A model generated the notes under the pieces. It was not told where the DNA came from and did no database searches. It was given only the letters and a program-made list of their open reading frames with translations. Of a stretch of DNA of 64,000 nt, positions 1,233 through 64,000 are shown piece after piece. The DNA comes from Sphagnum compactum (Eukaryota), in NCBI GenBank assembly GCA_965153455.1, contig OZ234494.1, positions 8,866,001-8,930,000 of the forward strand. Reading direction: 5' to 3'. Within the stretch, counting starts at the first letter, position 1. Every line of letters starts with the position of its first letter. Both the position numbers and the translations under genes were made by a program.

Positions 1233-1736
1233 GTGCAGTGCTATTTGATGTTTGCATTTCCTTCATAGCATCATTCATGTTCTTTCTGCAATTCTTTTGA
1301 GAACAAATGTGATGGTCAGGGAAACAAGAAGTCTGTGAAGAAACAAAGTAGGGTAAGACTTCTTTTGCTGAATGTTGGTCCAATTTCCATCACTGCTGAC
1401 CTTGTCCCTACATCCCATGAAAGAAGCATACTTGAAATGTTTACAGGTGACAAGGGTGAAATTGGAGGTCAAAACAGTTGTGGATCATCCCTACAAATTC
1501 AATCCCATGGATCCTGCACTTCACCTCGTTGCCAAGGTACACAAATCCCTTTGATTGATCAGGTTGAAAAGGTAACATGCTTGCAAAAATACATGGTCCA
1601 CTCATAAACATGGCTTTAAAACCAAGATGGTGTGAATGAACAAATGCAGGCCATCCTGAATCAGCATCTTATCCAGTGCCTCGCTCACAACCAATGACTA
1701 ATTAGAAAGCATTCCTACACAGAATCAATAAAACTC

Positions 1737-4700
1737 CTAACGATGGCCATGGGACACCCATGTGCTGCCCGGCTCTCTAGACTCACGTGTGCTATTCCAC
1801 TGCGGTGGAGATGGCCAGCTTGCACAGCTACTATCATTCCCAGAGTGGGCTTCCCAACCCTCTCCTCCTCTCTGGTTTTCACTGGAAAGGTGTCTGCTGT
1901 GGGCTCTTGAATTATATGTGTGCTCACCTTCCCAACAATGGCCACCTTGGTTTTGAGTTGCAAAGTTTGCTCTCAACTCATGCCTATGGTGACTTCTGCC
2001 TCCAAAATATGTTCCAGGTCTTGAGTCATACATGTAGTGATTTGTCTTGAAACCACTAGGGCCTTGTTCAGATTCATTTGCCCAGCCATGTTTGGGTACA
2101 AATCTTGTGGTGGCAAAATTTGCCCACCCATCAACCTGGCCTTCAACAGTGGGGCCTCCCCAACTAGCTCCATCTTCCCTATTTTCCATGGTGAAGTTTG
2201 AACCATCTTGCACTTGCTCTTCAGTGCTACAGCCCCCCCAACTACCTCCACTTCCCTTGTTTTCCATGGTGAAATTATCCCAACCATGTCGTATCTCATC
2301 TGCACTGCTGGTGACCTCCCAACTACCTCCACCTGCTCTATTTTCCACTTTGAAGTCTGCCCAACTGTCCTGTTCTTGGTCCTGTTCTTCAACAGACGGG
2401 TGCCCCCAAATTACACCTCCATCTGCGTGATCTTTGTTGGCAGGGATCCTCCAACTCTCTCTACCTCTGTTACTGTGTCGCTGAGACGGTGCATGTTTGA
2501 CATTGGCATTCCGTTCATACTGTCCCCTGTAATGTTCATACCTCCTTTCACCAGTAATGTCCCTCTGACACCTCCATTCAACCGAAGTGTTGTGTGCACC
2601 ATTCCAGTATGGTGGGGAGGGCCGATTCCAATGGCCACTACCATGCTCAAAATAGTGTCCCCAACTCCTGCCTCTTCCATGCCAGTTGCTTCTGCCTCGA
2701 GGTGCATCCCAGTCTCTCCTTTTGTCCATCTGATGCCCTCCCCTAGCCTCAACAGACCTCCTGCGCTGATAAAACTCCCCATCACGTTGGTGAACTCTAT
2801 CCGACCTTACAAGGCTGCCTTCCCTATCAACCAGAGGTTCACCTCTAGGCAGTGGAGGTACAAATGAAGCATCTGATTCTCTGTGGCCTTCCATGTGTTG
2901 ACATCCCCCAGTCTTTCCAGATCTCTTACAGTGGATAGACTCACCATGTTGGTAGTCTCTATCCCATCTGACCTGGCTTCCTTCCCTATCAATCTGAGAT
3001 CCACCTTGAGCTGATAGAGATACATCATACTGCTCCTCAAAACGATCCCAGCCATCATTTTCAGCCTCTCTATCCCACTCACTATTTGGTTGTCCACCCC
3101 AGTTCTTATCATCTACTGTCCTTGGACTGTGACCCCATTGTTCACCAGAATAGCCATCAGCCACTCTGTCCCACTCACCCTTGGGTTGTTTTTCTTGAGG
3201 TGGTAGAGGCACATTCAGTGCAGAACACTGCTTGTTAAAATGATCCCAGCCAGCACTTTCCACCTCCCTGTCCCATTCCCTCTTGAGTTGTTCACCCCAC
3301 CTCTCATCATCAACTGTCGTTGCACTGTGACCCCGCTGTTCACCAGAATAGCTATCAGCCACTCTGTCCCACTCACCATTGGATTGTTCTTCTCGAGGTG
3401 GTAGAGGCACATTCAGTGCTGCATATTGCTTGTTAAAATGATCCCAACCAGCACTTCCCACCTCTCTGTCCCACACACTCTTGGGTTGTTCACCCCACCT
3501 CTCATCAGCTACTGTCCTTGGACTGTAACCCCACTTTTCACCAGAATAGCCGTTGGCCCCTCTGTCCTGCTCATTCTTGGGTTGTTTACCCCACTTCCCA
3601 TCATCTACTGTCCTTGGACTGTGACTCCACTGCTCACCAGAATAGCAGTCAGCCACCCCGTCCCACTTCCGATTGTTTACTGTCCTTCGACTGTGACCCC
3701 ACTGTTCACCAGAGTGGCTGTTGTCCTCTCTGTCCCACCCATGCTTCAGTCGTTTACCCAATCTCTCCTCAGCTACTGGTCTTGGACTATAACTCCACTT
3801 TTCATCAGGATAGATTTCTTCGAGTTGACATACAGGACTAGAGAGCCTACTCTTTTTAGAGCTCTCACGGGCAATAATATCATCCCCCAGTAGTGTTGAA
3901 TTGGAAGCCACATTTGATTCTCTGTTAACTGACTCTGGTTGACCTGCACCAATTAGACCACTGTAAACCTGCCAGAGTGGGCTTGCTGCTGTGATGCTTG
4001 GCTCACCTATGGGGTTCTTCTCCACATATGCCTGCACATCCTCTGCATCTCGAAGTCCCTCCAAATATTGCCGCAGTGCCCCACCTATAAAACCAGCCTC
4101 ACTCCTAAGATTCCTGAATTTATTGAAAGCAAACCATAAATCAATTGTCAAAGTTTTTCAACCTGTCCTTCACTGATATGAAATCCCTGCAGGGCCTGAA
4201 CTAAGACAAATATGGTGTGATGCCATGAAATTTCAACATCCTTAACCAAGACCATAGGAAAGATGCAACACAGCCTGACAGCAAGCTTTCAGCATGACCT
4301 CATACCTAAAAAGTTGTCATCAGATTCATGTCCTGTATATGTCTGAGGAAAAATGGCTGTACTTGGCTGCACAGGTACAGGTATACAGCAGTCAATTGAT
4401 GACTGTTGAAAATCGGTAGAAAGACAAGAAGACATCATCTACCTTGCCCAAAAAATCTGTCTATGTTGAAATCTGAATGTCAGCTAAGCAACAAGACCTT
4501 AATTGTAAGGAACATAAATTGTAAGCAGAAGTTCCTAAATGTTTCAGACCTTACAAAATACAGCAAACAATGATATGGTACTCACAGGATTTTTTAGGGC
4601 TTTGTATGGGGAATCGTCCACAAGGAGGCAGTTTGAGGGTCCATATTCTCCAGGCTTGAAAGTTGCCCATAACTTTGACAACTCTTTCAGAAACACAGGT

Positions 4701-6297
4701 TTATGCTTTTTGGCAGGATGCTTGACCCCAGTCAACGTGCAGTGTGTTTGATGCTGCAGAATCACCAACAGCAGCAGATGCAATCAACCTTCAAGGTCAA
4801 CAAATTAACTTCATTGGAAACTTTGCAATCAAAGTGCCCAGTCCATGGTCTCACATGACATGTACTGAAAGACATAACAGCCCCAGAATGCAACATGAAC
4901 AAACATGACAAACAGGAGTCTGAGATCACATGATTGCTCAATAAACAATAACACCTCCAAAATCCAATGTTCCTGTGTCCATTGCATCAATGAATATTAC
5001 CCAGGAAAATGCAAGCTGATGTCTCAAATCCTTGAACACAAACTCCACCAGATTATTCACATTGAACCTACACAGGCATGGCAGTGCATTCACATGGCAG
5101 AAGATTACACTACAAGAACAGATTTGTGAGAATCTTAACATTTGAAAGGTAAGCACAAGCTTGCAGCTTCACTATTCCAATAGTCCTATTGCAACCAACA
5201 GTAAGTACAGTAGGGCAAACTTGATAGTACGTCAAGTTGTCAACACACACCTACCTTCAGCATCCACTAGAAGGCACTCTTGAAAAAACTTGCAGTTGGG
5301 CATAAGCAATTTTGAAGCTGGTGACAGACATTCTGATTACATTTCCAAACCACACAGTAGTGTGCTACAATACTGCTGATGGATCCCAGTAAAGAGAAAT
5401 AGCACCACCGGTGAACAGATAGATAGAAACATCAAAACTACAACAAACCTTTAGATCAAACAAATGCCTTTGAACCAACTGACACTGAGAAAGCAAGGAG
5501 GAGGAGAACTCACTCTCGTGCTGAGGACCAAATTCCAACCGTGAAATTCTCCAGGCAAAACAGCACAAACTCTTCACAAAATGGCCTCTTGTACACTGTG
5601 GAAAAAAGCCACACAAACACAAAACCTAAGTCCCCAGTTACCTGAAACAGAACTACTTCCAACAGGTGGTAACACACTGAGAGTAGGTCCCAATTCTCAG
5701 ATCAGATTCAAACACTGAAGAATACCACAAAGGATACAGAATCCAGTGAAGGGATCGAATGGATCAGCATCAGCACATGGAATTCCCTGCAAGTAATAAC
5801 AAGTACATTCTACCGAATCCTGCTACGCATAGATTCTAGTGTTAGAAAGAAGAGACTCAGTCATGAACCCTTTTCCTTCCCGATGGAGAATCAGTTACGG
5901 ACTACCACCGTTGCTGCACCGCAACTAACTGCTGGAAAAGAGATAACAAAGAGCAGCCAGCAGCTGTAAACAAACCAAACGCACAAATCCTTCCACAGAA
6001 AAGGGGAAAAAAACCAACAACCGCGATGGAGAAGAAAAAGAGCAACAAAACGTTACCGTAGAAGTTGCCGAGCTTCACGTGATGAGGTTCAGGAGGTAAG
6101 GCCTCCTGCTTGTGGTAAGTAGCCACCAGCAGTCCATTCACGTCCAGAACCAGCAATTTCTTCTTCTTCGCAGGCGCGGATACCATGGCCGGCATAACCT
6201 CCTCCTCCTCCTCCTCATCCACGTCGCTAGCTCCTCCTCCGTCGTTACGCATTTCCGTAGCATTCTCCACACCGCTACCTCCTCCCTCGTTAAGCAT
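1737..6297 (-). CDS. FCP1-homology (NIF/HAD-superfamily) phosphatase-like protein with a long WG/GW-rich C-terminal extension
   Basis: Six exons with GT-AG boundaries and matching phases: 6297-6057, 5595-5514, 5067-5001, 4753-4586, 4366-4306, 4084-1737. Motifs are KKKLLVLDVNGLL, VYKRPFCEEFVLFC...VGIWSSA, PVFLKELSKLW, LLVDDSPYKALKNP, AIFPQTY and LRQYLEGL...DVQAYVEKNPIG. Confidence 0.9.
3040..3800 (-). repeat. Coding tandem repeats in the FCP1-like tail (66-aa units and shorter YSGEQWGHSPRTVDD-like units)
   Basis: WDREVGSAGWDHFNKQ...LNVPLPP recurs at ~198-nt spacing; SGEQWGHSPRTV-type units recur about six times. Confidence 0.85.
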
Positions 6298-6540
6298 GTC
6301 AGCATCCACGAACCTCAAGCTGTTCCACACATTCGTCGCGAGCTAGAGAGAGAGACACACACAGTCCACGAGGAGAGAGAAAGAGAATAGACGCAAATCA
6401 GTAGCAGCAGGAGAAAGCAGACTACTGTGAAGCGAGCAATAGCAATTTCCTCACTCGGAGGTCAAGTAACCACAACTGCTGCGTTTACTATCTCCATTTC
6501 CAAACGCCAGCCAGAGAGCGTCACAACAGAGCGAACAGCA

Positions 6541-6549
6541 AAACCCTAA
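6541..6549. promoter_or_regulatory. Telo-box AAACCCTAA upstream of the FCP1-like gene
   Basis: Exact AAACCCTAA ~245 bp upstream of the ATG at 6297. The motif is short and could occur by chance. Confidence 0.3.
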
Positions 6550-7688
6550 CGATTGCTCCTTAGTCTTCATCAGCAAACGGCTTTTTGGTGGTGCTAGAAC
6601 TAGGACCAGTTGAGTTGGTGATACCTTGGTCAGCCAAGCCACTGGAGTGAATTCAAGAGAATTGCAAATTAGCAAAGCATCTCTGCCAGATCTTTCTATT
6701 TTACTGTGCTTTCTAGTCTCTATGAAGGAGGATTCAGGCAATAAGCTGCATTTCTAATCAAAATTGGAAAATACAATGGCTACAGAATCAAAAGAGCATG
6801 TGCCCTTTCTGCCTCTTCAGATCAATTTGTACAATAAATGCAGTTTTTGACACAACATATGACATTCAGGTTATTTGCTAGTAGTCTTCACACATAAAAT
6901 GTCCATGTGTGGTTGTGTGTGTCAAGAATGGAAGCTCAGCTTTACCACCAGTCTCACACAGAGAGTTGACCAGATGGGGATTCAGGACATTGACAAGGAT
7001 GGGAAAGATATTTTCTAATGCAGGTTTGTCGTACAACAAGAACAGATGTGCATCTGAGAAAGGAACCTGACACACATGGACTGTTGAACAGATAGGGAAG
7101 CTCCACTCCATGGAGGCTTGTAGTCCTGGTCAACTCCAGTTCAGCCAAGATGGTTGTGTAACAGCTGCAGGACACTCTTTATTGCTGCAGCTACTAGGAC
7201 AAAATGTACAAGCAGCAGACTCAATGAAGGTAATGGATGGTCTTCCACCACCTTTCAAACAAAATTGGCCACAATTGAAGCACTTGAGAGGAGATTTGTC
7301 AATAGAATGGCTTTGCACCAGAACTGATGGCTCCAATCCAAAGACTTTTTGCTCACATGAGTTTACATTACACACAAGGCAGGACATACAAAACCAGAGT
7401 ACAACCTTGTAGAAACAGGAAACACCCTCTTGTGCATTCAGTAGACCATGGGGGTGCAACAGGGTGATGATTCCACCTTATACTATCTGCTGAAGCAGCA
7501 ATGCAGACTTCTCCTGAAATTCTAGCAAAGTTTCTTTTACTACCACTGTGCAAGACACAGTACTACTGCTGGAGAGCCACAGAGAAAGAGAGATCCCTGG
7601 TCTGTATATATAACAACAGTCAAGCACTGGCATCCCTATGGTTTGCAGAGACTAGAATTGCTGAGTTCTATGAAGCAATAGATCAACC

Positions 7689-9021
7689 TTAGCTAGCTTG
7701 GTTCAGCGGATTGTCAGGCGATTTTTTCCATAATTTCCAAAGCATGTCTTTGTATTGAGTGTGTGTAAGGCCTGGCTTCTCCTGCTTTAGCACAGGCATT
7801 TCCGCTTCCTCAAAAGCCTGCAAAAGCCAACATTAAGATTCCACTTGCTTGTACATATTGACCAGTTCTCAAATATCAAATACAAGTCCTGATTCCAACT
7901 TCCAACTATTTCCCTTGGTGTATTGGATTTGCATTAGGTAACCAGGGAAGGAAAACAGAGAATCTTCCAACTACAGACCTATGAAAGAGGTGAGAAGAGA
8001 ATGGGAGCACCTTGAAGGAGGCTTTGAGCCTGCGTTCAGGGTGGCGGTCTGCAGGTAGTTCAGGAGCAGAAATGCTGCTCATCTGAGCCAGTGCAGTATC
8101 TAGACCATGAGCATCCACAATGTCATCATCACGATTGCTGTTGGCCACAGACACCAGACACTCATACTCATCCTCGTGAGCAGTGCGACTCTCACGCAAC
8201 TTGGCAGCTTGAGCTTGTGCTTGCAATTGTTGCTGCTCCTCTTCCTTTCTCTTTGCCAACTCTGCTGCTGTCACCTGTGTACAGCAATACCCAGTCAAAC
8301 CCGTGCATAAACAAAACATTGTACACAGCAGAATTTGAAAAAAATATGTACCAGCACTGTACTACTGCATGACTAATTGCAGTTGATTCTTCTGCCAATC
8401 CTCCAGACTTTGTCTCATGGAAAACTCGAGTGCTTTACCTAGGTAGCACAATTGCTTAAGACTCTAAAATGGTGGACACGAACTGCAACTGCATGCTTCA
8501 TGAAGATTAGAGCTGAAGGTGCTGCTGCCAAGCATTCTAATGACTGAAAGTGACACTCTATCAACAAGCATTGAGCATGCCAAAAGTCGTTCAGAATTTT
8601 GCTGCCTCAACGAACAATTGAATGAGCAAGGGCACACCATCCCAAACCCTAATCCTAAGCCTAAGAAGCAGCACGGGTACTGTACTAAAGGAAGAGAATG
8701 GAAAGCATGTTGCTTGTGTACCTTGGGCACAGGAACTGCCACCCGAGTGGCCTTCTTGTCAACACGTTTTCCGTACTGTGCAAGCTCATTTTCCTCCTGC
8801 TCTGCCAACTTCTTGGCCTCAGCACGTTTGGCAGCTGCTTCTGTGCGGCGCATGGCATCCTCGCTTTTCTTCTTCTCAGCCTTAGACAAGGGACCCTCAG
8901 CATCTTTCCAGAAAGTTTCCTGCCGCTGCCGCTCTTCCTCAACCTTCTTTTGTGTCTGTGCTTCCATTTTGCGACTCCGTGCCTCCTCTGCCTTGCTGTT
9001 GGTGCTCATCTTCTTGGGCAT
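7689..9021 (-). CDS. CCDC124: Coiled-coil domain-containing protein 124 / Lso2 homolog (ribosome hibernation factor family)
   Basis: Exons 9021-8722, 8274-8011 and 7817-7689 with GT-AG boundaries. Translation includes MPKKMSTNSKAEEARSRK, DRHPERRLKASFKAFEEAEMPVLKQEKPGLTHTQYKDMLWKLWKKSPDNPLNQ. There is a probable 5'UTR intron at 9654-9041. Confidence 0.93.
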
Positions 9022-9592
9022 CTTGACTGATGATGATCCCCTGAGAATCAACACTTTCTGCTATTTTCTGACTCCTTTTCTTTGGCTCTTTTTTTGTTTC
9101 ACCAACCTCTTTGCTTGCTTCACAAATTCTGATGAATCCACAAAACACCCCACAAAAACCATTCTCCTTCAGGTGGATCAAAAAAGAAATTGAATTGAAT
9201 TAAGTTAAGCACTCTCAAGAACTCACTGCTCGACTACACATAGTAGACACACTCCTGGTGGAGAAATACCAACAAAAGGGGCATCATCGGCTAGTTTCCC
9301 TCTCAGGATCGTGCACAACACTTTAGGGTTTAGAGTCCCAAACCTATACAATTGTGACGATTCCACGGTTTCGGGTTTTCGTCGATTCCTGAAATCGTCA
9401 AGTTGAGCAAAGGTGAGAGATGGCACTTCTACACTCGCGCAGATTGTCAAAATCCGTCTTCCAGGAGCATCTATGATCAAAACTCTTATCCAGGATTGCG
9501 ATCTGAACAGTCGAAAACTCAAGGCTCAAGCAGGAATAAAGGCATTAAAAACCATCAACATAAAAGAGTGTCGACCGTCATAACACCTGCAC

Positions 9593-40529: not shown

Positions 40530-43500
40530 ATGAATGAAGAGGAAGAGGAGGCCCCTTTGGAGGACCCGCGCATCCGTCGAAATCATCTTGCTCGGGAGAG
40601 GCACGCTGCTCGATCTAAGGAGCAACGTGCGGTAGATGCCAACCGGCGAGCAACTCACAGAGCTACGCATAGTGATGCGCAAATTACTGCGGATGCCAGC
40701 CGGCGGGCAACTCATAGAGCTGTGCGTAGCGATGCGCAGATTGCAACGAATGCCAACTGGCGAGCAGCTTAGAGAGCTGCGCGCAGCAATGCCCAGATTA
40801 CGGCGGATGTTAATCGACGAGCAGTTCAGAGAACTGCACGCAACGATGCGCAGAATGCAACGAATGCCAGCTGGCGGGTAGTTCAGAGAACTGCGCGCAA
40901 CGATGCGCAAATTGCTTTGGAAAATGTTGTGTGTGTTAACGCCCGGACACTTTTGCATTCTGATAGGCAACAGGAAATGCATAACGCAGATCCTGATGCT
41001 CACCAGGGCCAGCGTGAGCAATTGCCGGAAGAGCGTCGCCAAGAAATTCGAAACGTTGACCGTCAAGCACGTAGTGCCCAGCGTGAACTCGATCGCGCAA
41101 ACCAAGGTGGGAATCAAATGATACCTTTGGCGCGCCGTGAATTTGACGGCATCCATTGTGGTCTTCGCCACACTTTAGGTGAAATGACCACCGTGTGTGG
41201 CAAGTGCGACGCCCTACACTTTTTGGAAGAGCGTGCCGCATCAAATTCGTGCGCCAATCCGTAATTTACACTGTGCTGCGCGTAAGGTAAAGTGACGCTG
41301 CCCCCATTGGCACCCCCACCAAAGCCACTCAGGCGGCTCCTTACAGGTAAAGAAACGGATGCGAAAGACTTTCGTCAGCACATCCGCTCTTACAACAGTG
41401 CGTTAGCCTTCACGTCTGTGGGGGCCAAGCTGGATACCAACGTTGCCCAACCTGGCAATTATACTTACCGTCTTCGCGGTGAGCTTTACCATAGGATGGG
41501 GAGTCTACTTCCTCAACCTAGCGAGGCGCGAAAATTCGCCCAACTATACATCAGCGATCCGCATGCCGAGCTTGATGGCCGGATGGGCAATTTTGGTGGC
41601 CTGAATAGGGACACCATGCAGTCGTTGCAAACGATGCTACATGCATGTAACCCCTATGCCATTATCTACCGAACGGCCGTGGAACGGCTCCAAGGCGGGG
41701 CTATTGAGCTAAGTCTTCGTTTGGTGAATGACCGCCGCACTGATTTACGGCGTTACAATGCGCCAACTGTTGACGAAGTTGGCGCATTGATGGTTGGGGG
41801 CGATGTGGATGAAGTAGACGCACGCGACATTGTTGTGCGTTCGACTAATGGCTATTTTCAGCACGTTTCTCCCCTGCACAGTGCATACGCGCCACTACAT
41901 TACGTCCTTCTCTTCCCAAATGGACGCAACGGATGGCATGACGGCATCCCATTGAATGGATTTCAATGGGATGGCTCTGTGTTCATCCAGGATGACGAGA
42001 ATACAGTAGGTGGTAAACGCGGTTCTGCGCGCGTCACCATGCTTCAATTTTATGCATACATGCTACAGCATCGCATCAACGAGGAATGGATTCTACGAGC
42101 CGAAAGGCTTTTGCAGCAATTCATTGTTGACGCATATGCATATACTGAACAAAATCGCTTGAAGTTTATTCGCGAGAACCAAAGACAATTGCGTTGCGAC
42201 CTGTATAATGGTCTTCAAGATGCATTGAATGCTGGCGACGTTCTCGGGAACGTCGTCGGGCAGAAGATGATTCTCCCGTCGTCATTCCAGGGTGGTGAGC
42301 GCGCCATGGGCCAATTGTACCAGGATGCCATGGCCAGGGTCTGCAAATTTGGTAAGCCAGACCTTTTTGTCACATTTACCTATAATCCTAAATGGAAAGA
42401 GATTACAAATGCGCTTTTCCTGGGGCAGACTGCCAAGGATCGCCCAGAGTTGATAACTCGCGTTTTCAATTTGAAACTTGACGCCCTTTTGAGGGACATC
42501 AAAGATGGTGTTCTTGGCAATGTGATTGCTAAAATTTGGGTCATCGAGTTTCAAAAGAGAGGTTTGCCCCACGCACACATTTTGCTCATTTTAGATGAAG
42601 CGTCAAAATTGCGCACTGCCGAGGACTTCGATTCGATGGTATCGGCCGAGATTCCGGATTTGATACGCCATCCTGAGGCGTATGAGACGGTCACTTCGTG
42701 CATGGTGCATGGGCCATGTGGTCCAGATTTTCTCAACGCACAATGCATGGAGCAGGGAAAGTGCAAGAAAAAGTACCCGCGTTCCTTTAGTGAAGAAACG
42801 CGCTGTGATGTTGACAAGTACCCCGAGTACCGACGTCGTCAAACCCGCATTTTTGTAGATCCAAAGACGCAGCGCGTGGTGGATAACCGATGGATTGTCC
42901 CGTATAATCTTCATCTGGCAACCAAGTACCACGCGCACATCAACGTGGAGATATGTTCGTCCATATCTGCCGTCAAGTACCTGTACAAGTATGTGTACAA
43001 GGGACCTGACCGTGCTACTGCCGTTGTCGAAAAGCAAGTGAATAGGCATGGCCAGGAGAACAATGCGCAGGTGGTTGTTGCTAATGGTGAGGGGCAAAAC
43101 CACGATGAAATTAAAGCATACCTTGAAGGACGTTATGTCTTTGCTTCCGAGGCATCGTGGCGTCTTTTCTCTTTTAGAATGCATGAAGGGACACCGTCTA
43201 TCACACGCCTTGCCGTGCACGAGCCTGCAATGCATAAGGTCGTGTACAATGATAATGCCAGTATTTTTGAAACTATTAATAGCGAGCTAAACCAGAAAAC
43301 AACGCTCACCGAATACTTCCAAGCCAATATTGATTACCCCTTGGCCAGAAAAGTCACGTACATGGATTTTCCCTCTGTGTTTACATGGACCAATGGGACG
43401 AAAAAATGGACCATCCGGCAAAGAGGGTGTTGTGTCGGGCGCCTTTATTTCGTCAGTCCTTCCGTTGGCGAACGCTATTTCTTACGTACATTGTTAACGA

Positions 43501-45363
43501 AGGTCAAAGGTGCTGTTTCTTTTGAAGTTCTTCGCACAATTAACGGTGTTATCCATGACACATTCAAATCAGCGTGCATTGCGCCTGGTTTGTATGACTC
43601 GGATGACGAGTGGAATGCCTGCTTAGAAGAAGCAGTTGGCATGCAAACAGGTGCGCAATTGCGGTCTCTGTTTATGACCATCTTTGCCTTTGGCGTTCCA
43701 GGTGAGCCGCGCATGCTCTGGGACAAGTATAAGGAGCACATTTGCGATGATTGCAAGGTAGCATTGCAACGTCGCGGTATAGTGGAACCGTCCATTGAGC
43801 AAATTGAGAGTTGAGCACTACATTCCTTACAGGATGCGCTTGCCAAATTTAACAAAACTCTCGAGGAATTTGGCCTTCCTGCCCCCTCTGTTGCTTTTGA
43901 TCGATTAGAGACTAATCGCCTGCTTGAGGTGGAGCGCGACTACAATGTCGAGGTCTTGCAAGCCGAGGTGGCTATGGCCATTGAGAGCCTCAATGATGGG
44001 CAACGTGCACCCTATGCTGCCCATCACGCTAAAGTCATCTTTATCGATGGCCCCGGTGGAATGGGTAAAACCTACACCGAAAACTTGATTTTGAATGTTG
44101 TGCGTTCGCGTGGCGATATTGCACTTGCTGTCACCTCTTCAGGCATTGCTGCACTTTTGCTCTCAGGAGGGCGAACGGCCCATTCATACCTGAAGATCTC
44201 GATTGCACTCGACTGTACGTCCTTTTGCTGTATGCGTAAGCAAGATGATTTAGCGGCGCTAATCCGTCAAATGAAACTCATCCTTTGGGATGAAGCTCCT
44301 ATGACTAATAAGTTCGCTTTTGAAGCGGTGGATTGAACTTTGCGTGACCTTACAGATAGGAATGAGCCCTTTGGCGGCATTGTTTTCGTCATGTCAGGGG
44401 ACTTTCGCCAGGTCTTTCCGGTCATCCCCCGGGGATCCCATGCAGACATTGTCTCTGCATCAATTAAGAACTCCTACCTACGAGAATCTGTTGAGGTATT
44501 CCGTCTTTTGAAAAACATGCGAGCCGGTGATGCCATTGCTATTCACCCCGATCTTGGGAATCGCACTTTTGCAGACTGGCTTCTTTGTCTTGGCAACAAC
44601 GAGCTAGAAACCATCGATGAGGACTACATCAAATGTCCAGACATGATGAAACTCCCTCCTACGGACACACGAGCCATGGCTGTGGCCATCTACCCTCAAC
44701 TACACGAGGGCCAAGTCACACAAGTATTTGCGTGAGTGCGCGATTTTGGCTCCTCGCAACAAGGAGGTTTCACTAATAAACGTGATGGTTTTAAGCTACC
44801 TTCCAGGCGCGCAAGTTGACTTCCTCAGTGCGGATTTTGCAGAGGACATGGAAGTGGCGAACACATACCCTTCCGAGTTCCTCAACACTTTGGAAGTCAG
44901 TGGCATGCTTTCACACAAGTTGTCGTTCAAGATTGGCACACCAGTGATGCTGTTGCGCAATCTCGACCCATCGGCTGGGCTATGCAATGGGACGCGCCTG
45001 ATTATTCGACGCTTCACGATGCGGGTTGTTGAGGCTGAGATCATCACAAGCAAAGGGGCTGGTAATGTGGCCTTTATCCCGCGCATTAAGTTCATTTCCG
45101 ATAACAGCGGTTTGCCATTTACATTTGCAAGGAAGCAATTTCCTTTGCGGCTAGCCTATGCGATGACTATTAACAAGTCTCAAGGGCAGACCCTCTCTCA
45201 TGTTGGCCTTCATCTCGCAGATGACGTTTTTTCGCATGGCCAACTTTATGTTGCCTTTTCACGCGCCAAAGCACCAGCGAACATCAAAGTTCAACTGCTA
45301 GACACTATGCATGGCCGGATTGGCCTTATGCGCAATGTTGTGTACGAAGAAGCCCTCCTTTGA
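40530..45363 (+). pseudogene. Helitron Rep/PIF1 helicase (RepHel), intronless and disabled
   Basis: Zn motif CGKCDALHF...LCC, HUH motif IEFQKRGLPHAH, Y2 motif KYLYKYVYKG, and PIF1 motifs DGPGGMGKT, WDEAPM, GDFRQV, QFPLRLAYAMTINKSQGQTL and FSHGQLYVAFSR. In-frame stops at 40770, 41262, 41283, 43812 and 44334, and a frameshift near 44720. Confidence 0.95.
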
Positions 45364-47057: not shown

Positions 47058-48209
47058 AGCATCACACTGATGGGTACATGGTTGTTTTAAAATTCAAAGG
47101 GTTAGTGCAGCACACTGAAAGATACATATCCCTCTTGCTTGTATTTCAAGCAAAAGAATGAGCACTCATGTGACAAATTTGTGCACATTGCATTAATGTT
47201 ACACTTATCCCAACTTCCCACAACTTTCACAGGTTGGTCCCATGGACAATATAACCAAATGCATCTTCCCATTGGAGTGTTGATTATTTTCCAATCCTCA
47301 CCAATAAACATGAATACTTGAACAATAAAAACACGAGAATTTATTTAAATGTTATCAATCATAATCTAGACCAATTTTAAAAAAACAATCAATTTTTTCT
47401 CATAAGTTATGATCCATTTTGGAGATTGTTTTCTCTTGTGCACAATTTATAGATCTTAAAAAGCATCTTCACTTTGAAGGAATAAACACCATTTCATATT
47501 AAATTTCAGGTGAAATGTGTAGTATGTATAATAAGGGAAGGCACTACTATTAGTGCCTTTTTCCTGCATAATGGCTAAGGGCTCAGATGCATTTACACAA
47601 ACTTTTCCTGCATAATAACGACAACCCATACTCACTTATGAGAAAATTTCCTATTTCCTTACAGGAAACCTTTTACTCCAGGCTGATGAGGAAATTGTTG
47701 TCTTGTAAGACGCCTTGAAAATACACTACACACATCTGCCAAGGTCACTATGATGATGCAAAAACTTCTGATGTACACTAAATATGATTAGCAATTTGTG
47801 ACTTTTAGAAACATCTTTAAACAGAATTGTTTCATATTGAATTGGTGATTGATAACAAATTGTTGGTACTGGTGTACAGATTTAAATTGGTTTCTCGCTC
47901 TATGAAGTGCAGGAAAACTCCACGATATTCTGTTTTTAAACATGGAACTCATGTATTAACACTAAATTGTTGAACTTGCCATTGGTGCTATGATCATCGT
48001 CTATGGTTGGGCAAGTGCTTAAACCATGTTGCACAATTAGATAATATGCCTTGTTCAGACCCGGGCTAGTGGCAACATGCAACTTGGCTGGGTCTTCCCA
48101 ATGGCCATTACATGTTACACTTTTTGTTTTCACTCCAAAAGAGATTTCACACCTACTGGTCTAAATAGTGTCTGCTACATACAATCGACTTGCCCCAATA
48201 ATAATGTGT

Positions 48210-48517
48210 TTAAAGGTGATGGATGAATTATCGTTGGACTCCTGATAATGGGTTAAAAGGTGATGGATGAATTATTGTTGGACTCCTGATAATGGGTTAA
48301 AGTTGATGGATGAATTATCGTTGGACTCCTGATAATGGGTTAAAGTTTATGGATGGATGAATTATTGTTGGACTCCTGATAATGGGTTAAAAGTTGATGG
48401 ATGAATTATTGTTGGACTCGTGATAATGGGTTAAAAGTTGATGGATGAATTATCATTGGACTCCTGATAATGGGTTAAAGTTGATGGATGAAAAATTATC
48501 GTTGGATTCCTAAATAA
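48210..48517. repeat. ~44-bp minisatellite, about 7 copies
   Basis: Contiguous units GGGTTAAAAGTTGATGGATGAATTATYGTTGGACTCCTGATAAT with no spacers. Confidence 0.95.
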
Positions 48518-48613
48518 CATACCCTTACACTTACCCTTATTCATAAATTGTGATTAAATTAGAACCAGGCTTCCACAAAAACTCAATATGTAACCCAAGC
48601 ACTGAATGATTGG

Positions 48614-49530
48614 TTGCAGAATTGAAATGTCAATTTTCAGATTCAAATAATAATATTCAAATTTGAAATGTCCATTTTAAGACTCAATTAACAATTTTCT
48701 GAATTGAAAGATTAATTTCGAAAATCCAAAATAATTGGAATTCAAATTTCAACTTTCAAGTCAAATAATTTCTCAAAATTGAAATTTTAAACTCCAGAAT
48801 TCAAATTTCAAATTTCAAGTCGAAATAAAAATACCTTAAATCAAAATGTCAATTTTTAGATTCAATAATTTTTTTTGAATTGAAATACTAATTTTTAGAT
48901 TCAAAAATAATAATTTAAAATTCAAATATCAATTTTTAAATCAAATAAGTTTTTTGAATTTAAATAACAATTTGCAGAATTGAACTATCAATTTTCATAT
49001 TCAAATAACAATATTCAAAATTGAAATGTCTAGTTTTACACTCAATTAATATTTTTTCAGACTTGAAGTATTAATTTTGAGAATCCAAAATAATAATTTG
49101 GAATTGAAATTTCAGGTTCAACTCAAATAATTATTTAAAATTTAAATTCATAATTTTTAGAGTCCAAATATAAAATTTCATATTCATATAAAAATATTCA
49201 AAATTAAATGTCCATTTTTTATATCAACTAATAATTTTCTGAATTGAAATACTAATTTTTGGATTCAAAAATATCAATTTAGAATTCAAATATCAATTTT
49301 TAGATCAAATTAGCCTTTTTGAACTTAAATTGAAAATATCATATTCAAATCAAAAATTTGAAATTGAAATAATGTTTTAAACAATTGAAATAATAATTTT
49401 CAGATTCAAATATCAAGTTTCAAATTCTAATATATATATTTTTTAAAATTAAAATAATATTTTTCAGTATTGAAATATCAATTTTCAGATGAATAAAAAT
49501 TCAAAGTTCAAATTTAATTTTGAGATTCAT
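48614..49530. repeat. AT-rich ~360-bp repeat array, right part (about 2.5 units)
   Basis: CAGAATTGAA..TCAATTTTCA recurs at ~48617 and ~48975; same family as 33258-33662. Confidence 0.85.
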
Positions 49531-52500
49531 TATATGAACAATATACATACGTATGCATATTATATATATATAATTTTAGTACATACATTAAAATACACCC
49601 CTATGTCATTGTAGAATACCTTTAGGATGCAATTATTTTGGTGACTATTGCGACTAATGGGACATATCAACCTATTAATGGATGAAAATAAATGTAAAAT
49701 TGATCTAACCAATAGGATGAAATTTTTAATAGTTGCATCATAGTTGTGAGAATGACCAAAATAGTTGAAATATGGTCCTGTAGTTGCAAATGTTCCCAAA
49801 TATAATCACAAACGACTACGAGTCACATGTAGTCGTAAATGGAGTGGTTACATTTTGGCTGATTTTTACTAGTGTTTACAACTAGCCTTGCAATTCAATT
49901 TTTGAGTTATAGAAGACACTTGCAACTCACTATATCTATACATCGTGGGTGCTAACGAACAAGTTGCATGAATTGTAGAGTTACAACTCAAGATATATAT
50001 GGTGCAACTCAATTGCAACTCAATCAAAACAAATTCTTTTTAACTATTATGCAACTCCATTATAACTACACCCATGATGTCATATTAATGTTAGTAATTG
50101 TCATCCATAGATTAAAATTTGACGCATGACATTATGAAGATTTTTGGACATAACTATTTTTTTTGAAATATTGATCTACATCGTCCATTATGATTATTAA
50201 TGATGGTCCGAAATTGTGACACATGGCATAATTTTTTTTTGCCAAATGGCATATTAATTATATTTTGGGAAAAAAATTAATTATTTTAGTAACTAGGTAG
50301 GTTGACATAACCATAGGTAGGTAGGTCTTAAAACCTACATACCTATGTAATTACCTAGGACCTCATGACCTACCTACTACATAGGTAGGTAGAAAAGTAG
50401 GACCTACTTACTTATCTAGATAAGTAAGTAGGTAGGAAAGCACAAGACTAAGTGCATTAAATAATAGCCATGAAATTTTATTTTTTATTTTATGTTTTGC
50501 CTTTGGGTTAAGCTTTTTTAAGCTCATCCCAAAATGGCACATGTATTTTAATGTGAGAACATAAGGAACCAAGCCTTATTTATATTGTTTATAACATGGG
50601 ATCTAAAGACAAAACATATGGATTAAAAATTTTAGTTGTTCGTTAGTTGCAGTTAAGTTGTAACTACAACATTTAAGTGTTCAAGGTAGGTTAAATCCAA
50701 GGGGAGGGCTCCATTATTTTTTGTGTCGAAACAAAACTTGAACCCCTCCTATTGACACATCTAGTGCACTAAGAATCGTAAAAAATGGAATAGAATTGAA
50801 AAAGTTATAGCTCTTCAAAGTAAAGAGGGTCAAGAATTCAAAAAAACAAACCACCAAATGTTACAAACGTTAGTTCCCAGGCACCCACAAAATTCCTTGC
50901 ATGTTGTTTTGTTGCTACAAGAGTTCAAAGATGATTTGTAGAACTTTAGGTGGCATTCCTATAATATTTTAAATCATTTATAATAATAATTATTATTATT
51001 ATGAGGTTTGAAACTAGGAGGGGTCCAAAGAGGAAAAAAAGGGAAAAACAACGTGTTTTGTAAATTGGAAAGCTTATTTATCTTGTTATTTTTTCATTAT
51101 TCATTTTCCTTTGCACTCCAAATATGATGTCTAAAACTTGAAGTAGCGCTCCCATAACGTTTTAAATCACTCAAAATGAAACACATATGATGAAAATATA
51201 AATAACTGATGTAAATATGTATCATTATTAAGTTATAAATAGTTGTATTATAGTCATAACATAGTTGAACAATAGTATTTTAGTAGTGACGCACTAGTGG
51301 CCGTACTAATTGTATCAATGGGAATCATAATCGAGATTAATTGCAAATGTATCCCATAATGGGTGGTGGAAATGTGAACACATGGCATGATCACATGTAT
51401 GTACATTGTACATTAGTTGCAACATAGTTGTTGCTTTAGTGACACATTTAGAATAGTTCTAAAATAATTGTCACATGCAAGTATAATTCAACTCTTGAAA
51501 AAAATCAAACATGGTTGACTACATATGTATGTACGATATGTATAAATTATAGTATAAAAGACCCATTTTAAACTTAGTTGCAACTTTAATACAATTAATT
51601 GATTTTTGACATGACAATTTATTATTAATACATTATATTTCTAAGGGGATAGTTCATAACAATTGTATATGAGTTGCAGGGTAATGTGGTTTTGGCGAAC
51701 ATGATTTTTCATAGTGATTATACAATACAACATTATAGATTTAATAGCCGTTTAGCCTCAATTCGATTATATAATGCTTAAATTAGTAGACACTTTGTGA
51801 TTTTGTATTCTATAAATGATAAATGAGGACTGATTTTAAATAAGGTATACATATTATATATAAATTCTTTAACTAAATAATATTTTATTGTGGATTTCAC
51901 TTGATAAAAATTTAAAGATATTATTCATCCATGAAAATACAATTTCTTTGATCCAATATTTTTTTCAAATAAGATCATTGATATATAATATATAATTATA
52001 TATATATATAATATATTATATTAATAAAAATAATCTTGAATAAAATGAATATAATATAACATTTATTTATAATTTATCTTCAAATTAATTAATATTTTAT
52101 AATTACATTATCAAACTCATATTATAATATAAATTAACGTGTATGTATTTAATATACCATATTTAAATGTATTGTATTTCCTACATACACTATGTAACAT
52201 TGAATGGTTTTGAAAATAACATTATTATATGTTGATACATCATATTTTATGAACTATTCATATTAAATTTCATAATTAAAATGTACTATGTAATACAAAA
52301 AAAGTCATATATTTTAAATTTTCTTTCATTTGGACAAAGTAAGAGAAAGATAATGATGGTTAAAGAAAGAAAATGTCTTCAAAACATTGTTGTTGAAATG
52401 TATTGAAATGCAAGATTTACATGCAATTTTCTCCAATTCAAGTATTTTTTAATAATTTTAAATTTTTTTTGTAGATTTTGGAAAACCTTCCAAAATGAAG

Positions 52501-52734
52501 TTCAAATCATTTCATTTAAACACAATATGAAAAAGATATTACTAATTAAAGTTGGCTTTTGGAAAAGGTTTAGTTGCATCTCAATTTAAAACTAGGTGCA
52601 AGTAAAAGGTTGAACACATATGTTTTGCCTTTGAATCTCATCTCACAAGTTATATAAAGAACATATCTTCCCATGATTTATCACATTGAAATGCATATGT
52701 CAATTTGGGATGAGGGAAGGAATGCTTGACCTTG

Positions 52735-53213
52735 AATGGAAATTGCAAAGTAAATGAAATAGTTCTTTGGTTATTCATTTCATTTACATTTTCCCTTTCC
52801 TACCTATTTGCCAACCTACATAAGTAAGTAGCACTACTAGAAAAACTGTTGTTCACAACCACTACATTTGTGACTAGCTGTGACTATAAACGATTGTTTT
52901 TGCAACTACGTTTTAAAAAAGGGATGGATTTTGGTTGTTTTTGCAATTATGTTGTAATTGGTATCAATGGAAATTGCAAAGTAAATGAAATAATTTTTTG
53001 GTTATTCATTTCATTTACATTTTCCCTTTCCTACCTATTTGCCAACCTACACAAGTAAGTAGCACTACTAGAAAAATTGTCGTTCGCAACCACTACATTT
53101 GCAACTAGTTGCGACTAGGAGTCACAAGTGACTATAAACGATTGTTTTTGCAACTACATTTCAAAAAGGGATGGATTTTGGTTGTTTTTGAAACTATGTT
53201 GCAATTGGTATCA
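52735..53213. repeat. 231-bp tandem duplication containing a CACTA left end (CACTACTAGAAAAA at 52832 and 53063)
   Basis: Two near-identical copies; the second has an extra ~17 bp. Confidence 0.85.
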
Positions 53214-54904
53214 TGTTCATCCATCCAAATGTTGTGTCCTCTAAACGTACAATAGTTCAAATATGGCCCAATATATATGCATAGTTGCATTGGTGACCAC
53301 AACAGTTGTAACCGTGATGGCGACCATATGTCACATATGGGTTGTTGCAATATTCCATAGACGTACTTATTGTACACATACACATAAGCCATTTGGATTA
53401 CACATCAAAATACATTTAATTTTTTTTAAAATTTAAAATTGCATGTAAGATTCCGTATGCCACCCATGGAACAAAAACAAGCCCAATATGTGGAGAGTCT
53501 TGCAAAGTTTTTCATTCCACAAGATCCTTTCACAACATTCATAACATGACTTGTTGAACAAAACAAGAGTAGTCATCTTGATGAGCAGGTCTCTTGTTGA
53601 CTAGTGACTTCATCTTGATGAGTAGTCTCCTAACATAACTTGTGCTCCCATCGAAGCCTTTATGTTAGCCAAAGCCCGACAACCACTTGCAACATTACAA
53701 TTGCTAGTATTTGCATCTAGGATGACAAATGCACATGGTAGCGCAACATGTTCGTGCCAATCTTTCGGTGCACAAATTGCCTACGAACATGTGGCAATGT
53801 CCCACCAACATACCAACCATTGTAGGTTGACGATCCCTGTTTTGGTGAAAAACACCAACTGATGAAACTACTTTTGGAAGGAAGAGCTTCTCCACATGAT
53901 ACTTCGACAAAATTTGAGTTTTGCAGCCTTTGGTAGCTCATTGGCTAAATGTATTAATGTGTGTGTAATTCTCATTTGCTTGGGTTAGTGAGGTTCAAGT
54001 CCCAATTTTGTCTCAGTTGTTTGATTTAATGAAGAAGTCCAAATTTTGTATGTTAACCTAGTTCAATTGATTCTCTACAAGAGGCACGATGGAACATTAT
54101 ACGGTTGGCAAGGAAATGGCATAGGTGTTATTGACCTTGGAACACAATTTTTGAAGACTTTCAAACCTCCGTTTGAGCCAGTTCTATGGGGCAACCACAC
54201 ACTAGACTTCAATGAATTTACTCAACTAACTTTGTGCAATACCTCCCAAGTCACTAATAAATGTAATGACATGGAATACGATGATCAATCCCACCACCCC
54301 ATTATAGTGAGCCTAGCCACTAGTATTACACCTTACAATGATGAATGTTAGTGCAAACTAATATTTAGAATTAAAGTGTGAAAGTAATATGTTAATCCAA
54401 CAATTTGGAAAAATCGTTAATAGAAGCTATGATTAATCATGGGTGTAATATGGTGTGCTAGCTATACATTGAAACTTTCTAGAATCACTAACATGCCTAG
54501 CCACTAGAAAATCACTATGGACCCATGACATGAAGATTAATGCACAACCACTTTAAAATATCATTTGATGCAATCACTAGAAGATCAATATACACCCATT
54601 AGAACAATAGGTCAAGTAATGATTATAAGAAAATCACTATGTAATCGTCAAAAACATCAATATGCATTTCACTTAAGGATCACAAGGGACAATCCACTCA
54701 CTGTTGTCTTGGGTATAGTACATGCCATATATTACAACAGACTAATCCATTACGATTCCACTGGTCGTTGCCACACGACCCTGTTCACTGGCGAATTCCA
54801 CTAAATTGGACAAGATGTCATTATAATGTCAATATAATGGAATTGGTTTAATCCACTTGAAAATAAGTGGAATGCATAGTGGCTAGGACCACGATCTGTT
54901 GTAG

Positions 54905-63200: not shown

Positions 63201-64000
63201 GGATGGTTGTGTGTGTCAATTGGCCTCCCACTTGCAATGTGGCTTTGATGCTCCCCTTGCCAATGGCCTCCAAAACGGTGTCATCGCCCATGAACACCCT
63301 CCTTGGGGAAATGCGCTCGTACGTGGTAAACCATTCTTGTTCGAATGTCATGTGTTGCGTTGCACCCGAATCGACAATCCAATCATACGTGGTATGATCA
63401 TTGGCACTCAATGCCGCAACAAACATTTGTTCGTGATCTTCACAAGCTTGATTAACTTTTTCTTTTTCATCATTTTTCTTCTTCAAACAATTTCTCACAA
63501 AATGTCCGGGTTTCTTACAATAAAAGCAAAGCTTCTCATTTGGCTTGTGAGTTTTGTTCACTAATGCGGTAGTCTCGGAATTCTCACATTCTTTTCTTTT
63601 GGACACTTCGTGAAGCAACCTTGCTACAACGAATTGAAGGTCTACATCTTTCGTGGACATGGACTCCAAGCTTGTGACTAAGTTATCAAAGGATGGAGGA
63701 AGGCTCATGAGGAGTACCATGTAAACATCTTCATCCGTAATGTTCACCTCGATGGAACGTAGTTGGTCCGCAAGGGCTTTCACCGTGTTGATGTGCACAA
63801 GCATGTCATCTCCTTCTTGCATTTTGATGGCGAAGAATCTCCTTCGAAGGAACAACTTGTTGCCAATGGTCTTAGCTTCATGCACACCACAAAGAGCCTC
63901 CCACGCACTTCTCACATTGTCACAATATTGAATGTGTGCAAGTTGGGCATCCGTGAAATGTTCGCAAAGCAATGCAAAAGCCTTGGTCTCTTTTTCGTTG
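60271..64000 (-). pseudogene. Copia gag-pol polyprotein with two frameshifts
   Basis: Zinc knuckle CFYCKKPGHFVRNC; protease WIVDSGATQHM; LWHERLGH; integrase HTDVCGP...RSDNGGEF...QNGVAERANRT; RT KARLVARGF, MDVKTAFL and YVDD; RNase H DADWGG, TEAEY and ADVLTK. Frame breaks near 63195 (small deletion) and 62100 (+1 A). Confidence 0.92.

Follow-up and report, generated by a model that had tools for sequence, protein, structure and literature searches.

The moss Sphagnum compactum encodes, in a stretch of 64,000 nucleotides that we refer to as the window (NCBI GenBank assembly GCA_965153455.1, contig OZ234494.1, positions 8,866,001 to 8,930,000 of the forward strand), a protein in which a phosphatase-like NIF domain is followed by a long tail rich in tryptophan. 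The N-terminal domain is an FCP1/SCP-fold HAD domain of an uncharacterized subfamily marked by the motif D-x-N-G, and the tail has 40 tryptophans and 19 WG or GW dipeptides. On balance we favor the view that the tail is a multivalent docking platform, anchored by its tryptophans, that carries the HAD module to a partner. Among receptors that can be named, the tryptophan pockets of the Argonaute (AGO) proteins are the leading candidate, and a tentative one.

The gene and its transcripts

The gene is on the minus strand; reading of the sequence places the ATG at 6295-6297 and the stop at 1737-1739, exactly the limits given in a preliminary description of this DNA that was made from the sequence alone (1737-6297). 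When the joints seen in RNA-seq reads are used, the coding sequence has six exons and 2967 nt, and it encodes 988 amino acids with zero internal stops. All 988 residues of this gene model are identical to those of P0311, a public Sphagnum compactum "unnamed protein product", and the model is therefore independently confirmed. The gene is thus already public as a hypothetical protein.

The transcript evidence on 1500-6700 consists of stranded poly(A) raw reads under the same species label (X22) and three sets of metatranscriptome contigs. The X22 joints are 5595/6057 (6 reads), 5065/5512 (cut +2; 1 read), 4753/5001 (2 reads), 4366/4586 (10 reads) and 4082/4304 (cut +2; 7 reads), and the first of these is also present in contigs. 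All five introns, including 5596-6056 and 5068-5513, have GT..AG ends. The parts of the gene, with the evidence for each in brackets, are:

6057..6297, minus strand: coding part of exon 1, with an acidic N-terminus, a KKKK run and the start of the NIF domain (joint and GT..AG)
5514..5595, minus strand: exon 2, with the W103-S104-S105 motif II codons at 5522-5530 (joints)
5001..5067, minus strand: exon 3 (joints 4753->5001 and 5065->5512, cut +2; splice sites)
4586..4753, minus strand: exon 4, with K153 (4685-4687, motif III) and D176-D177 (4613-4618, motif IV) (joints)
4306..4366, minus strand: exon 5 (joints 4366->4586 and 4082->4304, cut +2; junctions shared with the transcript-derived P0001)
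1737..4084, minus strand: coding part of exon 6 and the stop at 1737-1739, where the conserved domain extension ends and the tail follows (continuous X22 depth and open reading frame, ORF)
1600..1736, minus strand: 3' untranslated region, approximate (drop in X22 depth)

Exon 6 (2.35 kb) codes for 781 amino acids, of which about 726 are tail, in agreement with the repetitive last-exon sequence of about 730 residues that had been described; the tandem arrays that it contains are presented below. The stop-to-stop ORF at 1737-4157 has 806 codons for amino acids, and NIF-like blocks are found in shorter upstream frames. The whole of the last exon is transcribed. X22 depth is 7.7-18.1 in all bins of 1674-4109 and 0.03 in the intron bin 4110-4283, and it falls from 12.2 (bin 1674-1847) to 2.3 (bin 1500-1673) just beyond the stop. 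The first mates of X22 are all on the plus strand, which in the usual stranded libraries means minus-strand RNA, and there are zero differing X22 reads in the rows listed within the last exon.

Early termination and splicing of the tail were not encountered: no joint inside the tail is present among the X22 reads, and P0001, a protein 94% identical that comes from a 4.5-kb metatranscriptome contig, spans the exon 4/5/6 junctions and the whole tail. Three tail-skipping joints (1842->1976, 2042->2957 and 3003->3964) occur in a single X5 contig and in zero X22 reads, and we read this contig as one from a paralogue and not as a sign of splicing.

The NIF exons have a second set of X22 joints, with extra letters between the two sides, supported by 13, 16, 16, 14 and 12 reads that are 90-95% alike. 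These are attributed to an expressed paralogue that shares the NIF exons. Over 4586-6057 such divergent reads, which also have divergent exon ends, outnumber the junction reads of the gene itself by about 2:1, and therefore the paralogue with near-identical NIF exons is expressed more strongly in the X22 sample.

The NIF domain and its altered catalytic motif

The Pfam NIF profile (PF03031) matches P0311 with 74.4 bits (cut-off 21.8) at residues 47-224 and over its full length (positions 1-160 of 160). The fusion of an FCP1/NIF domain to a long, Trp-rich tail with WG/GW dipeptides, which the preliminary description had proposed, is thus real and is expressed in poly(A) RNA. The paralogue and other relatives score 63-160 bits on the same profile; scans of single exons give only sub-threshold NIF matches (20.4 and 15 bits). 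Motif I is encoded as follows:

6133..6144, minus strand: codons GAC GTG AAT GGA for D52-V53-N54-G55 (sequence; D, N and G invariant in alignments A1 and A2)

The motif reads LLVLDVNGLL, with the nucleophile Asp52 retained and Asn54 in place of the second Asp of DxDxT; the catalytic form DxDx(T/V) is not found, and D52-V-N54-G-L stands instead. The family sequence L-L-V-L-D-x-N-G-L-L aligns with L-L-V-L-D-I-D-Y-T-L of UBLCP1 and V-V-I-D-L-D-E-T-L of SCP1, and from these alignments Asn54 replaces the second Asp (the general acid/base) and Gly-Leu replace x-Thr. The D, N and G of motif I, Trp-Ser-Ser103-105, Lys153 and Asp176-Asp177 are invariant in the 21 (A1) and 16 (A2) aligned sequences, which cover a streptophyte alga, liverworts, mosses, a lycophyte, a fern and gymnosperms. 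S104/S105, K153 and D176-D177 are matched in UBLCP1 by the IWSAT, K and FDD blocks, which we take to be HAD motifs II-IV.

Because the rest of the active site is strictly conserved, we consider the site to be atypical and not dead. This pattern, with every active-site residue but the general acid retained, suggests either a conserved unconventional chemistry or a phospho-binding role. The domain would presumably still bind Mg2+ and a phosphoryl group, and its turnover might be slow or directed at another kind of substrate; it may also serve as a binder of phospho-sites.

The fold was predicted with AlphaFold2 (AF2) for a short family member, P0006, from the 21-row alignment (mean pLDDT 83.8). 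The best fold matches of this model, which is not that of the window protein, among structures in the Protein Data Bank (PDB) are CTDNEP1, SCP2, SCP1, SCP3, TIM50, UBLCP1 and Fcp1, and the FCP/SCP-type fold is in this way found on a family member. A profile of nine short members (A3) was compared with solved structures; UBLCP1 was best (E=4.1e-7 across the domain) and SCP1 was next (0.0016). A phmmer search with the paralogue P0158 against PDB sequences gave no match at E<=0.01. The profile that included the tails (A1) matched nothing but low-complexity proteins, huntingtin and CFAP46 among them, and these were rejected as compositional noise.

UBLCP1 (ubiquitin-like domain-containing CTD phosphatase 1, CTD being the C-terminal domain of RNA polymerase II, Pol II; PDB 3shq) is thus the best solved sequence match, over profile positions 12-217. 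The KKLLVLD..., IWS..., K...W and N-T-hydrophobic-DD...NP blocks correspond, and the FCP/SCP HAD fold is common to both (fold rank 25). However, UBLCP1 has DIDYT where the moss protein has DVNGL, and it has an N-terminal ubiquitin-like domain and lacks a Trp-rich tail. The reported substrate of UBLCP1 is the proteasome and not Pol II. The proteins closest by predicted fold are SCP1-3 (CTDSP1/2/L) and CTDNEP1/Dullard (Foldseek E 4.6e-11 to 7.7e-09, target-normalised TM-score 0.60-0.77), which share the Pfam NIF family with the moss protein. These differ in having the canonical DxDxT with the general-acid Asp (DLDET in SCP1), they lack the long disordered tail, and their sequence likeness is weak (profile E 0.0016 or worse, in the N-terminal 60 residues only).

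The preliminary description had suggested a polymerase-CTD module, and on this point it went too far. As noted above, the closest solved sequence relative is UBLCP1 and the top folds are CTDNEP1, SCP, TIM50 and UBLCP1. Because the nearest characterized relatives act on different substrates, the Pol II CTD should not be assumed to be the substrate.

Two further comparisons were made. Arabidopsis CPL1 and CPL2 have the canonical catalytic motif and belong to another branch of the FCP-type family. They resemble the moss protein in their FCP-type domain, and they differ in having dsRNA-binding motifs in place of Trp repeats; in the part of a review that treats them, their tie to small RNAs is through these motifs and work on HYL1 (PMC8774115). 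TIM50 is the automatic UniRef name on some Sphagnum fragments and is among the fold matches. We rejected this identity, as the label is automatic, the nucleophile Asp and motifs II-IV are intact in the moss protein, and a presequence or membrane segment did not turn up.

The D-x-N-G subfamily in plants

An exhaustive HMMER search of 1.84 billion proteins gave 810 matches at E<=0.001. Among the best 150 representatives of these 810, D-x-N-G is present in all 131 that could be scored, the other 19 being without the N-terminus. The replacement of DxDxT by DVNG had been described correctly, but it is not peculiar to this gene; because all 131 relatives carry D-x-N-G, it is a subfamily signature and not the degeneration of one gene. 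The subfamily is widespread, and it keeps all of the active-site residues except the general acid.

Members are found among named relatives from a streptophyte alga, liverworts, mosses, lycophytes, ferns, gymnosperms and angiosperms. A D-x-N-G NIF domain at the N-terminus with a long tail behind it occurs in Mesotaenium, Marchantia, Riccia, Calypogeia, Ceratodon, Diphasiastrum, Adiantum, Ginkgo, Cryptomeria and Taxus; in most angiosperm relatives the NIF domain is C-terminal or arranged in tandem. At least three paralogues exist in Sphagnum: the present gene, whose S. fallax and S. magellanicum counterparts bear chromosome-2 locus tags, a chromosome-8 gene of 747-815 amino acids, and a tandem-NIF gene of 588 amino acids. 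The source names of the relatives are all "hypothetical", "FCP1 homology domain-containing" or the automatic "TIM50".

No paper on the gene was found under its locus names (some with guessed spellings), none on a plant FCP1 subfamily that lacks DxDxT, and none on the D-x-N-G family or an FCP1-homology GW protein in a search that had supplementary proteomic and predictor tables outside its reach. The portion consulted of one review (PMC8774115) does not treat such a subfamily.

Some relatives have additional domains. In P0248, a protein of 1224 amino acids from a transcript assembly, the D-x-N-G NIF domain is preceded by several CCCH zinc fingers; P0014 (Helianthus) combines DUF724 with two NIF domains, and P0255 (Malus) combines DUF4378 with NIF. 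As domain combinations, these fusions are a hint that the subfamily may act in an RNA or chromatin context. The cluster of P0298, a 475-residue D-x-N-G NIF protein (LIVIDLNGLL), is present on 126 contigs, many of them from metagenomes.

Composition, repeats and disorder of the tail

The tail and its main parts are located as follows:

1740..3917, minus strand: Trp-rich tail, residues 263-988, with 40 W, 19 WG/GW and 13 WD (counts, AF2 and hydropathy)
3039..3813, minus strand: tandem-repeat zone with periods of 198, 96 and 168 nt and a unit of about 66 amino acids with 5-6 Trp (Tandem Repeats Finder)
2034..2426, minus strand: most hook-like C-terminal block, about residues 760-890, with GGSWG, GASWGG, DGWANF and HGWDNF; partly conserved in the paralogue

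Tryptophan makes up 5.5% of the 726 residues (the last-exon ORF has 42 Trp in 806 amino acids). WG occurs 11 times and GW eight times, which bears out the earlier count of about 19, and the five sequence contexts quoted with that count are all present. In 20,000 shuffles of the tail the sum of WG and GW is 9.3 +/- 2.8 and 18 shuffles reach 19, so the dipeptides are about two-fold over chance. Taken separately, WG has 4.7 expected (64 of the 20,000 shuffles reach 11) and GW has 4.6 (1611 reach 8). The strongest dipeptide signal is WD, with 13 copies where 2.75 are expected, a number that none of the 20,000 shuffles attains.

Tandem Repeats Finder reports a 198-nt unit, repeated 2.7 times with 85% match, at 3039-3567, and overlapping arrays of 96 and 168 nt that extend to 3813. 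Because of these repeats the WG/GW copies are partly non-independent. Tandem duplication of Trp-bearing units has built the array of about 40 Trp in the tail of about 726 residues, and each Trp may anchor a short linear motif.

The tail is predicted to be intrinsically disordered, and the dipeptides that exceed chance therefore lie in a putative disordered region. In the full-length AF2 model (16-row alignment), residues from about 250 to 988 have a pLDDT of 25-35 and no secondary structure. The mean normalised hydropathy of 0.339 and the net charge of 0.03 also point to disorder; these values fall on the disordered side of the charge-hydropathy boundary.

Searches with the tail alone added little. 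An ESM Atlas search gave no usable match, and a word search with residues 680-988 returned only the orthologue and paralogue clusters and no other family within the sensitivity of the tool. Pfam matches to RecJ_C_Deinoc and COQ9_N are below cut-off and were set aside as noise. Readings of the tryptophans as WxxF (six copies), AIM-like W-x-x-V or PEX5-type WxxxF repeats are given little weight.

The composition of the tail allows a different explanation, in which aromatic residues and Arg act as stickers between spacers and drive self-association, condensates or non-specific RNA binding with no Trp pocket involved; the NIF domain would then simply be concentrated in a nuclear or cytoplasmic body. 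The tail has about 9.5-9.6% Arg, 10.2% Tyr, Phe and Trp together, 11.6% Gly and 10.3% Ser, with a net charge near zero and low hydropathy, and the Trp intervals are mostly 8-15 residues. Regular aromatic spacing is linked to phase separation. All 32 of the tails examined in this family are Arg-rich (5.6-17.1%) and bear aromatic residues, whatever their WG/GW count, and the CCCH zinc fingers before the same domain in one relative, noted above, are a hint of an RNA context. In the part of a recent preprint on SGS3 that we used, Trp-bearing fragments of an intrinsically disordered region (IDR) condense and associate indiscriminately in vitro (bioRxiv 10.1101/2025.10.18.683247). However, this explanation does not account for the repetition of Trp in place of the commoner Tyr or Phe, nor for the enrichment of WD and WG over shuffles, and condensation of the tail is putative. 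We regard it as rather unlikely.

The tail in relatives

The five full-length Sphagnum orthologues all have 19 WG/GW and 42-44 Trp; their identity to the present protein is 94% in the tail and 98-100% in the domain. The chromosome-8 paralogue is about 92% identical in the domain (read off the printed alignment) and 34% in the tail, which has 20-21 Trp and 6-8 WG/GW, and the repeat zone at 3039..3813 is largely gapped in it.

Outside Sphagnum, 27 relatives have 0.5-3.3% Trp in their tails and 0-5 WG/GW. Arrays of a Y-D-R/T-R-W-E/Q-E-P unit are present in Ceratodon (YDRRWEEP-type) and in the relatives P0007 and P0009, and the D-D-x-R/K-W-G-E/K-Q-P units of Sphagnum resemble them. The tails of Marchantia, Adiantum and Mesotaenium have clustered Trp in Arg-rich contexts. 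From these counts and repeats, Trp repeats are an old bryophyte/fern feature and the WG/GW enrichment is an elaboration of the Sphagnum lineage, with the Sphagnum copy as a natural extreme of the Trp-rich tail. The ancestral unit was apparently a moss-wide repeat of the type Asp-x-Arg/Lys-Trp-x-Glu/Gln-Pro and not GW. The comparison of orthologues across bryophytes that the preliminary description called for thus gave a divided answer: scattered Trp repeats do recur in bryophytes and ferns, but a WG/GW density like that of Sphagnum does not.

The tail might also be a tolerated, essentially functionless repeat expansion behind a functional NIF domain, in which case the WG/GW count would be a by-product of unit duplication. 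Its tandem-repeat origin and its faster divergence than the domain, both within Sphagnum and toward the paralogue, are in keeping with this. On the other hand, six Sphagnum sequences have an uninterrupted 2.2-kb frame and all 19 dipeptides, a long tail persists in members that range from a streptophyte alga to gymnosperms, and the full tail is present in poly(A) RNA. In addition, pN/pS between the window and contigs of related species is about 0.46 among the 34 differences listed (22 nonsynonymous and 12 synonymous), a sign of constraint on the tail and not of junk. We consider a functionless tail very improbable.

A docking platform anchored by tryptophans is, in our judgment, the somewhat better supported account of the tail. 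Several results weigh against it. Across the six Sphagnum sequences, 38 of the 40 tail Trp columns are invariant compared with 652 of all 726 columns, so that Trp conservation (95%) barely exceeds the tail average (90%). The paralogue retains 15 of the 23 Trp that align and 245 of 497 aligned residues overall, a comparison in which the matrix itself favors W-W pairs. The other 17 of the 40 Trp sit in segments missing from the paralogue, and therefore much of the array is a recent repeat expansion, possibly tolerated and not selected. The tails of gymnosperms and several other relatives have only 0.5-1.3% Trp, and for this reason Trp-based docking would not be family-wide. The pN/pS value comes from 40 of 211 difference rows and from metatranscriptome contigs. 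The low pLDDT of the tail may stem in part from the small depth of the 16-row alignment; in that run even the NIF domain reached only about 50-83. The structure and expression of the gene, its domain family and motif states, the enrichment of Trp and its dipeptides, the repeat origin, the predicted disorder and the phylogenetic distribution are shown here, and the docking function, the partner and the catalytic behavior are things that we infer.

The tail as a possible Argonaute hook

The most specific proposal for the tail is that of a genuine AGO hook: several AGO proteins would bind the tail tryptophans through their PIWI pockets, which would tether the NIF (pseudo)phosphatase to RISC or to Pol II/V silencing complexes. 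A compositional predictor does not support this for the tail as a whole. We re-implemented dos from Table 1 of Karlowski et al. 2010 (PMC2910046), with dec 8.6 and a threshold of 6.99 half-bits; hooks of the Pol V type served to train the matrix, whereas the moss tail is acidic around Trp. The matrix sum of the whole tail is -234.7 half-bits, or -0.32 per residue compared with +0.58 for the reference composition, and the only 100-residue stretch with a positive score (+4.2) is in the C-terminal block at about 760-890. The compositional scoring that had been put forward as a check on the hook thus came out negative except for 13 short islands.

These islands have 2-43 amino acids and dos values of 4.7-21.0, nine of the 13 being above 6.99, and the best are at residues of about 760-890 and 940-982. 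When the tail itself is shuffled, 829 of 2000 sequences reach this maximum. The island count and the summed island score do exceed the shuffles (85 and 5 of 2000, respectively, reach them), because of the extra WG/GW seeds. Control sequences, random 726-mers drawn from the published hook composition, gave a median longest domain of 320 amino acids and a dos of 212. The available portion of the same paper gives 170 for NRPE1, 586 for SPT5L, 216 for GTB1, 74.5 for SDE3 and 10.8-38.9 for weak Arabidopsis candidates (PMC2910046), and the moss maximum of 21.0 overlaps the range of these weakest candidates.

The known plant hooks (the NRPE1 CTD, SPT5L/KTF1, SPT6L/GTB1, SDE3 and WGRP1) resemble the moss tail in their reiterated WG/GW, in a disordered region that evolves by repeats, and in a similar Trp fraction (6.3% in the reference set compared with 5.5%). 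They differ from it in composition: the moss tail has half the Gly (11.6% vs 21.3%) and several-fold His (5.1% vs 0.6%), Tyr (2.8% vs 0.4%), Glu (9.2% vs 4.8%), Arg (about 9.5% vs 4.4%) and Val. In the moss protein WD ranks first among the dipeptides, the overall matrix score is below zero, the attached domain has a HAD fold, and AGO binding is putative. By the results of the dos predictor, the tail is not a canonical contiguous plant WG/GW platform, but a Trp-dense region with short hook-like islands.

Two considerations suggest that the AGO-hook idea should be kept alive. According to the sections consulted of a study of NRPE1 orthologues, the share of the platform taken up by hook peptides ranges from <2.5% to >10%, and in platform evolution unrelated repeats have expanded again and again (PMC4476159); hook dipeptides are 38 of the 726 residues of the moss tail (5.2%), inside that range, and the turnover and rapid divergence of its repeats are typical of such platforms. 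Second, as far as the SGS3 preprint was available to us, the Trp that bind AGO frequently, though not in every case, have a Gly neighbor, and acidic residues close by are proposed as a further requirement for binding of the AGO1 type (bioRxiv 10.1101/2025.10.18.683247); the 13 copies of Asp after Trp would fit this proposal. The N-terminal IDR of SGS3, a proposed ligand of the AGO1 pocket, is similar in having Trp in an IDR with acidic residues, but it has few Trp and a defined acidic patch, whereas the moss tail has about 40 Trp with acidic and basic residues alternating.

When all of this is weighed, the hook is possible but doubtful. The excess of WG/GW, their retention in all five Sphagnum orthologues (which are, however, 94% identical overall) and the predicted disorder speak for it. 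However, the best island is no better than those of shuffles, compared with about 320 amino acids and a dos of about 212 in the control, the unit that mosses conserve is RW-x-EP and not GW, and WG/GW are few in all 27 relatives outside Sphagnum. Moreover, no FCP1/NIF protein is among the 20 Arabidopsis WG/GW candidates in the part of PMC2910046 that was available, and no paper was found that pairs "FCP1 homology" with GW or AGO (supplementary tables being outside the search). The hook-like tail of the preliminary description stands as to predicted disorder, dipeptide density and presence throughout the Sphagnum orthologues, and it does not stand as to matrix score, leading dipeptide or distribution beyond Sphagnum. 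Its interpretation as a silencing adaptor, partly supported, is a fair hypothesis and a reasonable candidate that exceeds the evidence.

A fuller version, which we think unlikely, is that in Sphagnum an ancient D-x-N-G HAD module, able to trap or bind phosphoryl groups, gained a repeat-expanded acidic Trp hook, and that this hook docks several AGO1-type Argonautes or a Pol V/SPT5L-like complex. A phospho-site reader or slow phosphatase would then be coupled physically to RISC, as a new class of GW protein that links AGO or polymerase-CTD phospho-signalling to small-RNA silencing, and the scattered Trp repeats of bryophyte and fern orthologues could be a weaker ancestral form.

Either outcome would be of use. 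If AGO binds the tail, the protein would be the first of the GW class to carry a HAD/phosphatase-like effector, and it would offer a new way into the study of silencing in bryophytes. If AGO does not bind, the tail would be a useful negative control, and would indicate that a count of WG/GW, taken without regard to composition and context, yields too many AGO hooks.

Other features of the window

Three other coding regions were noted. A Helitron-type transposon coding region is on the plus strand at 41286-45363, with an 842-residue ORF (Helitron_like_N, 185 bits) and a downstream ORF of 237 residues (helicase domains Pif1 2B and UvrD_C_2). A Ty1/copia-type LTR retrotransposon runs off the end of the window on the minus strand (60271-63999); its three consecutive ORFs are gag (Retrotran_gag_2, zf-CCHC), integrase (rve, gag_pre-integrs) and RVT_2 reverse transcriptase. 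At 8464-9060, also on the minus strand, a Lys/Glu-rich ORF of 198 amino acids (MPKKMSTNSKAEEARS...) has no Pfam match at E<=0.001; it may resemble the coiled-coil proteins of the CCDC124 type.

The G+C content is 23-36% at about 10000-34000 and 48000-54000, compared with 42-50% in the genic parts. The low-G+C stretches are presumably intergenic or repeat DNA.

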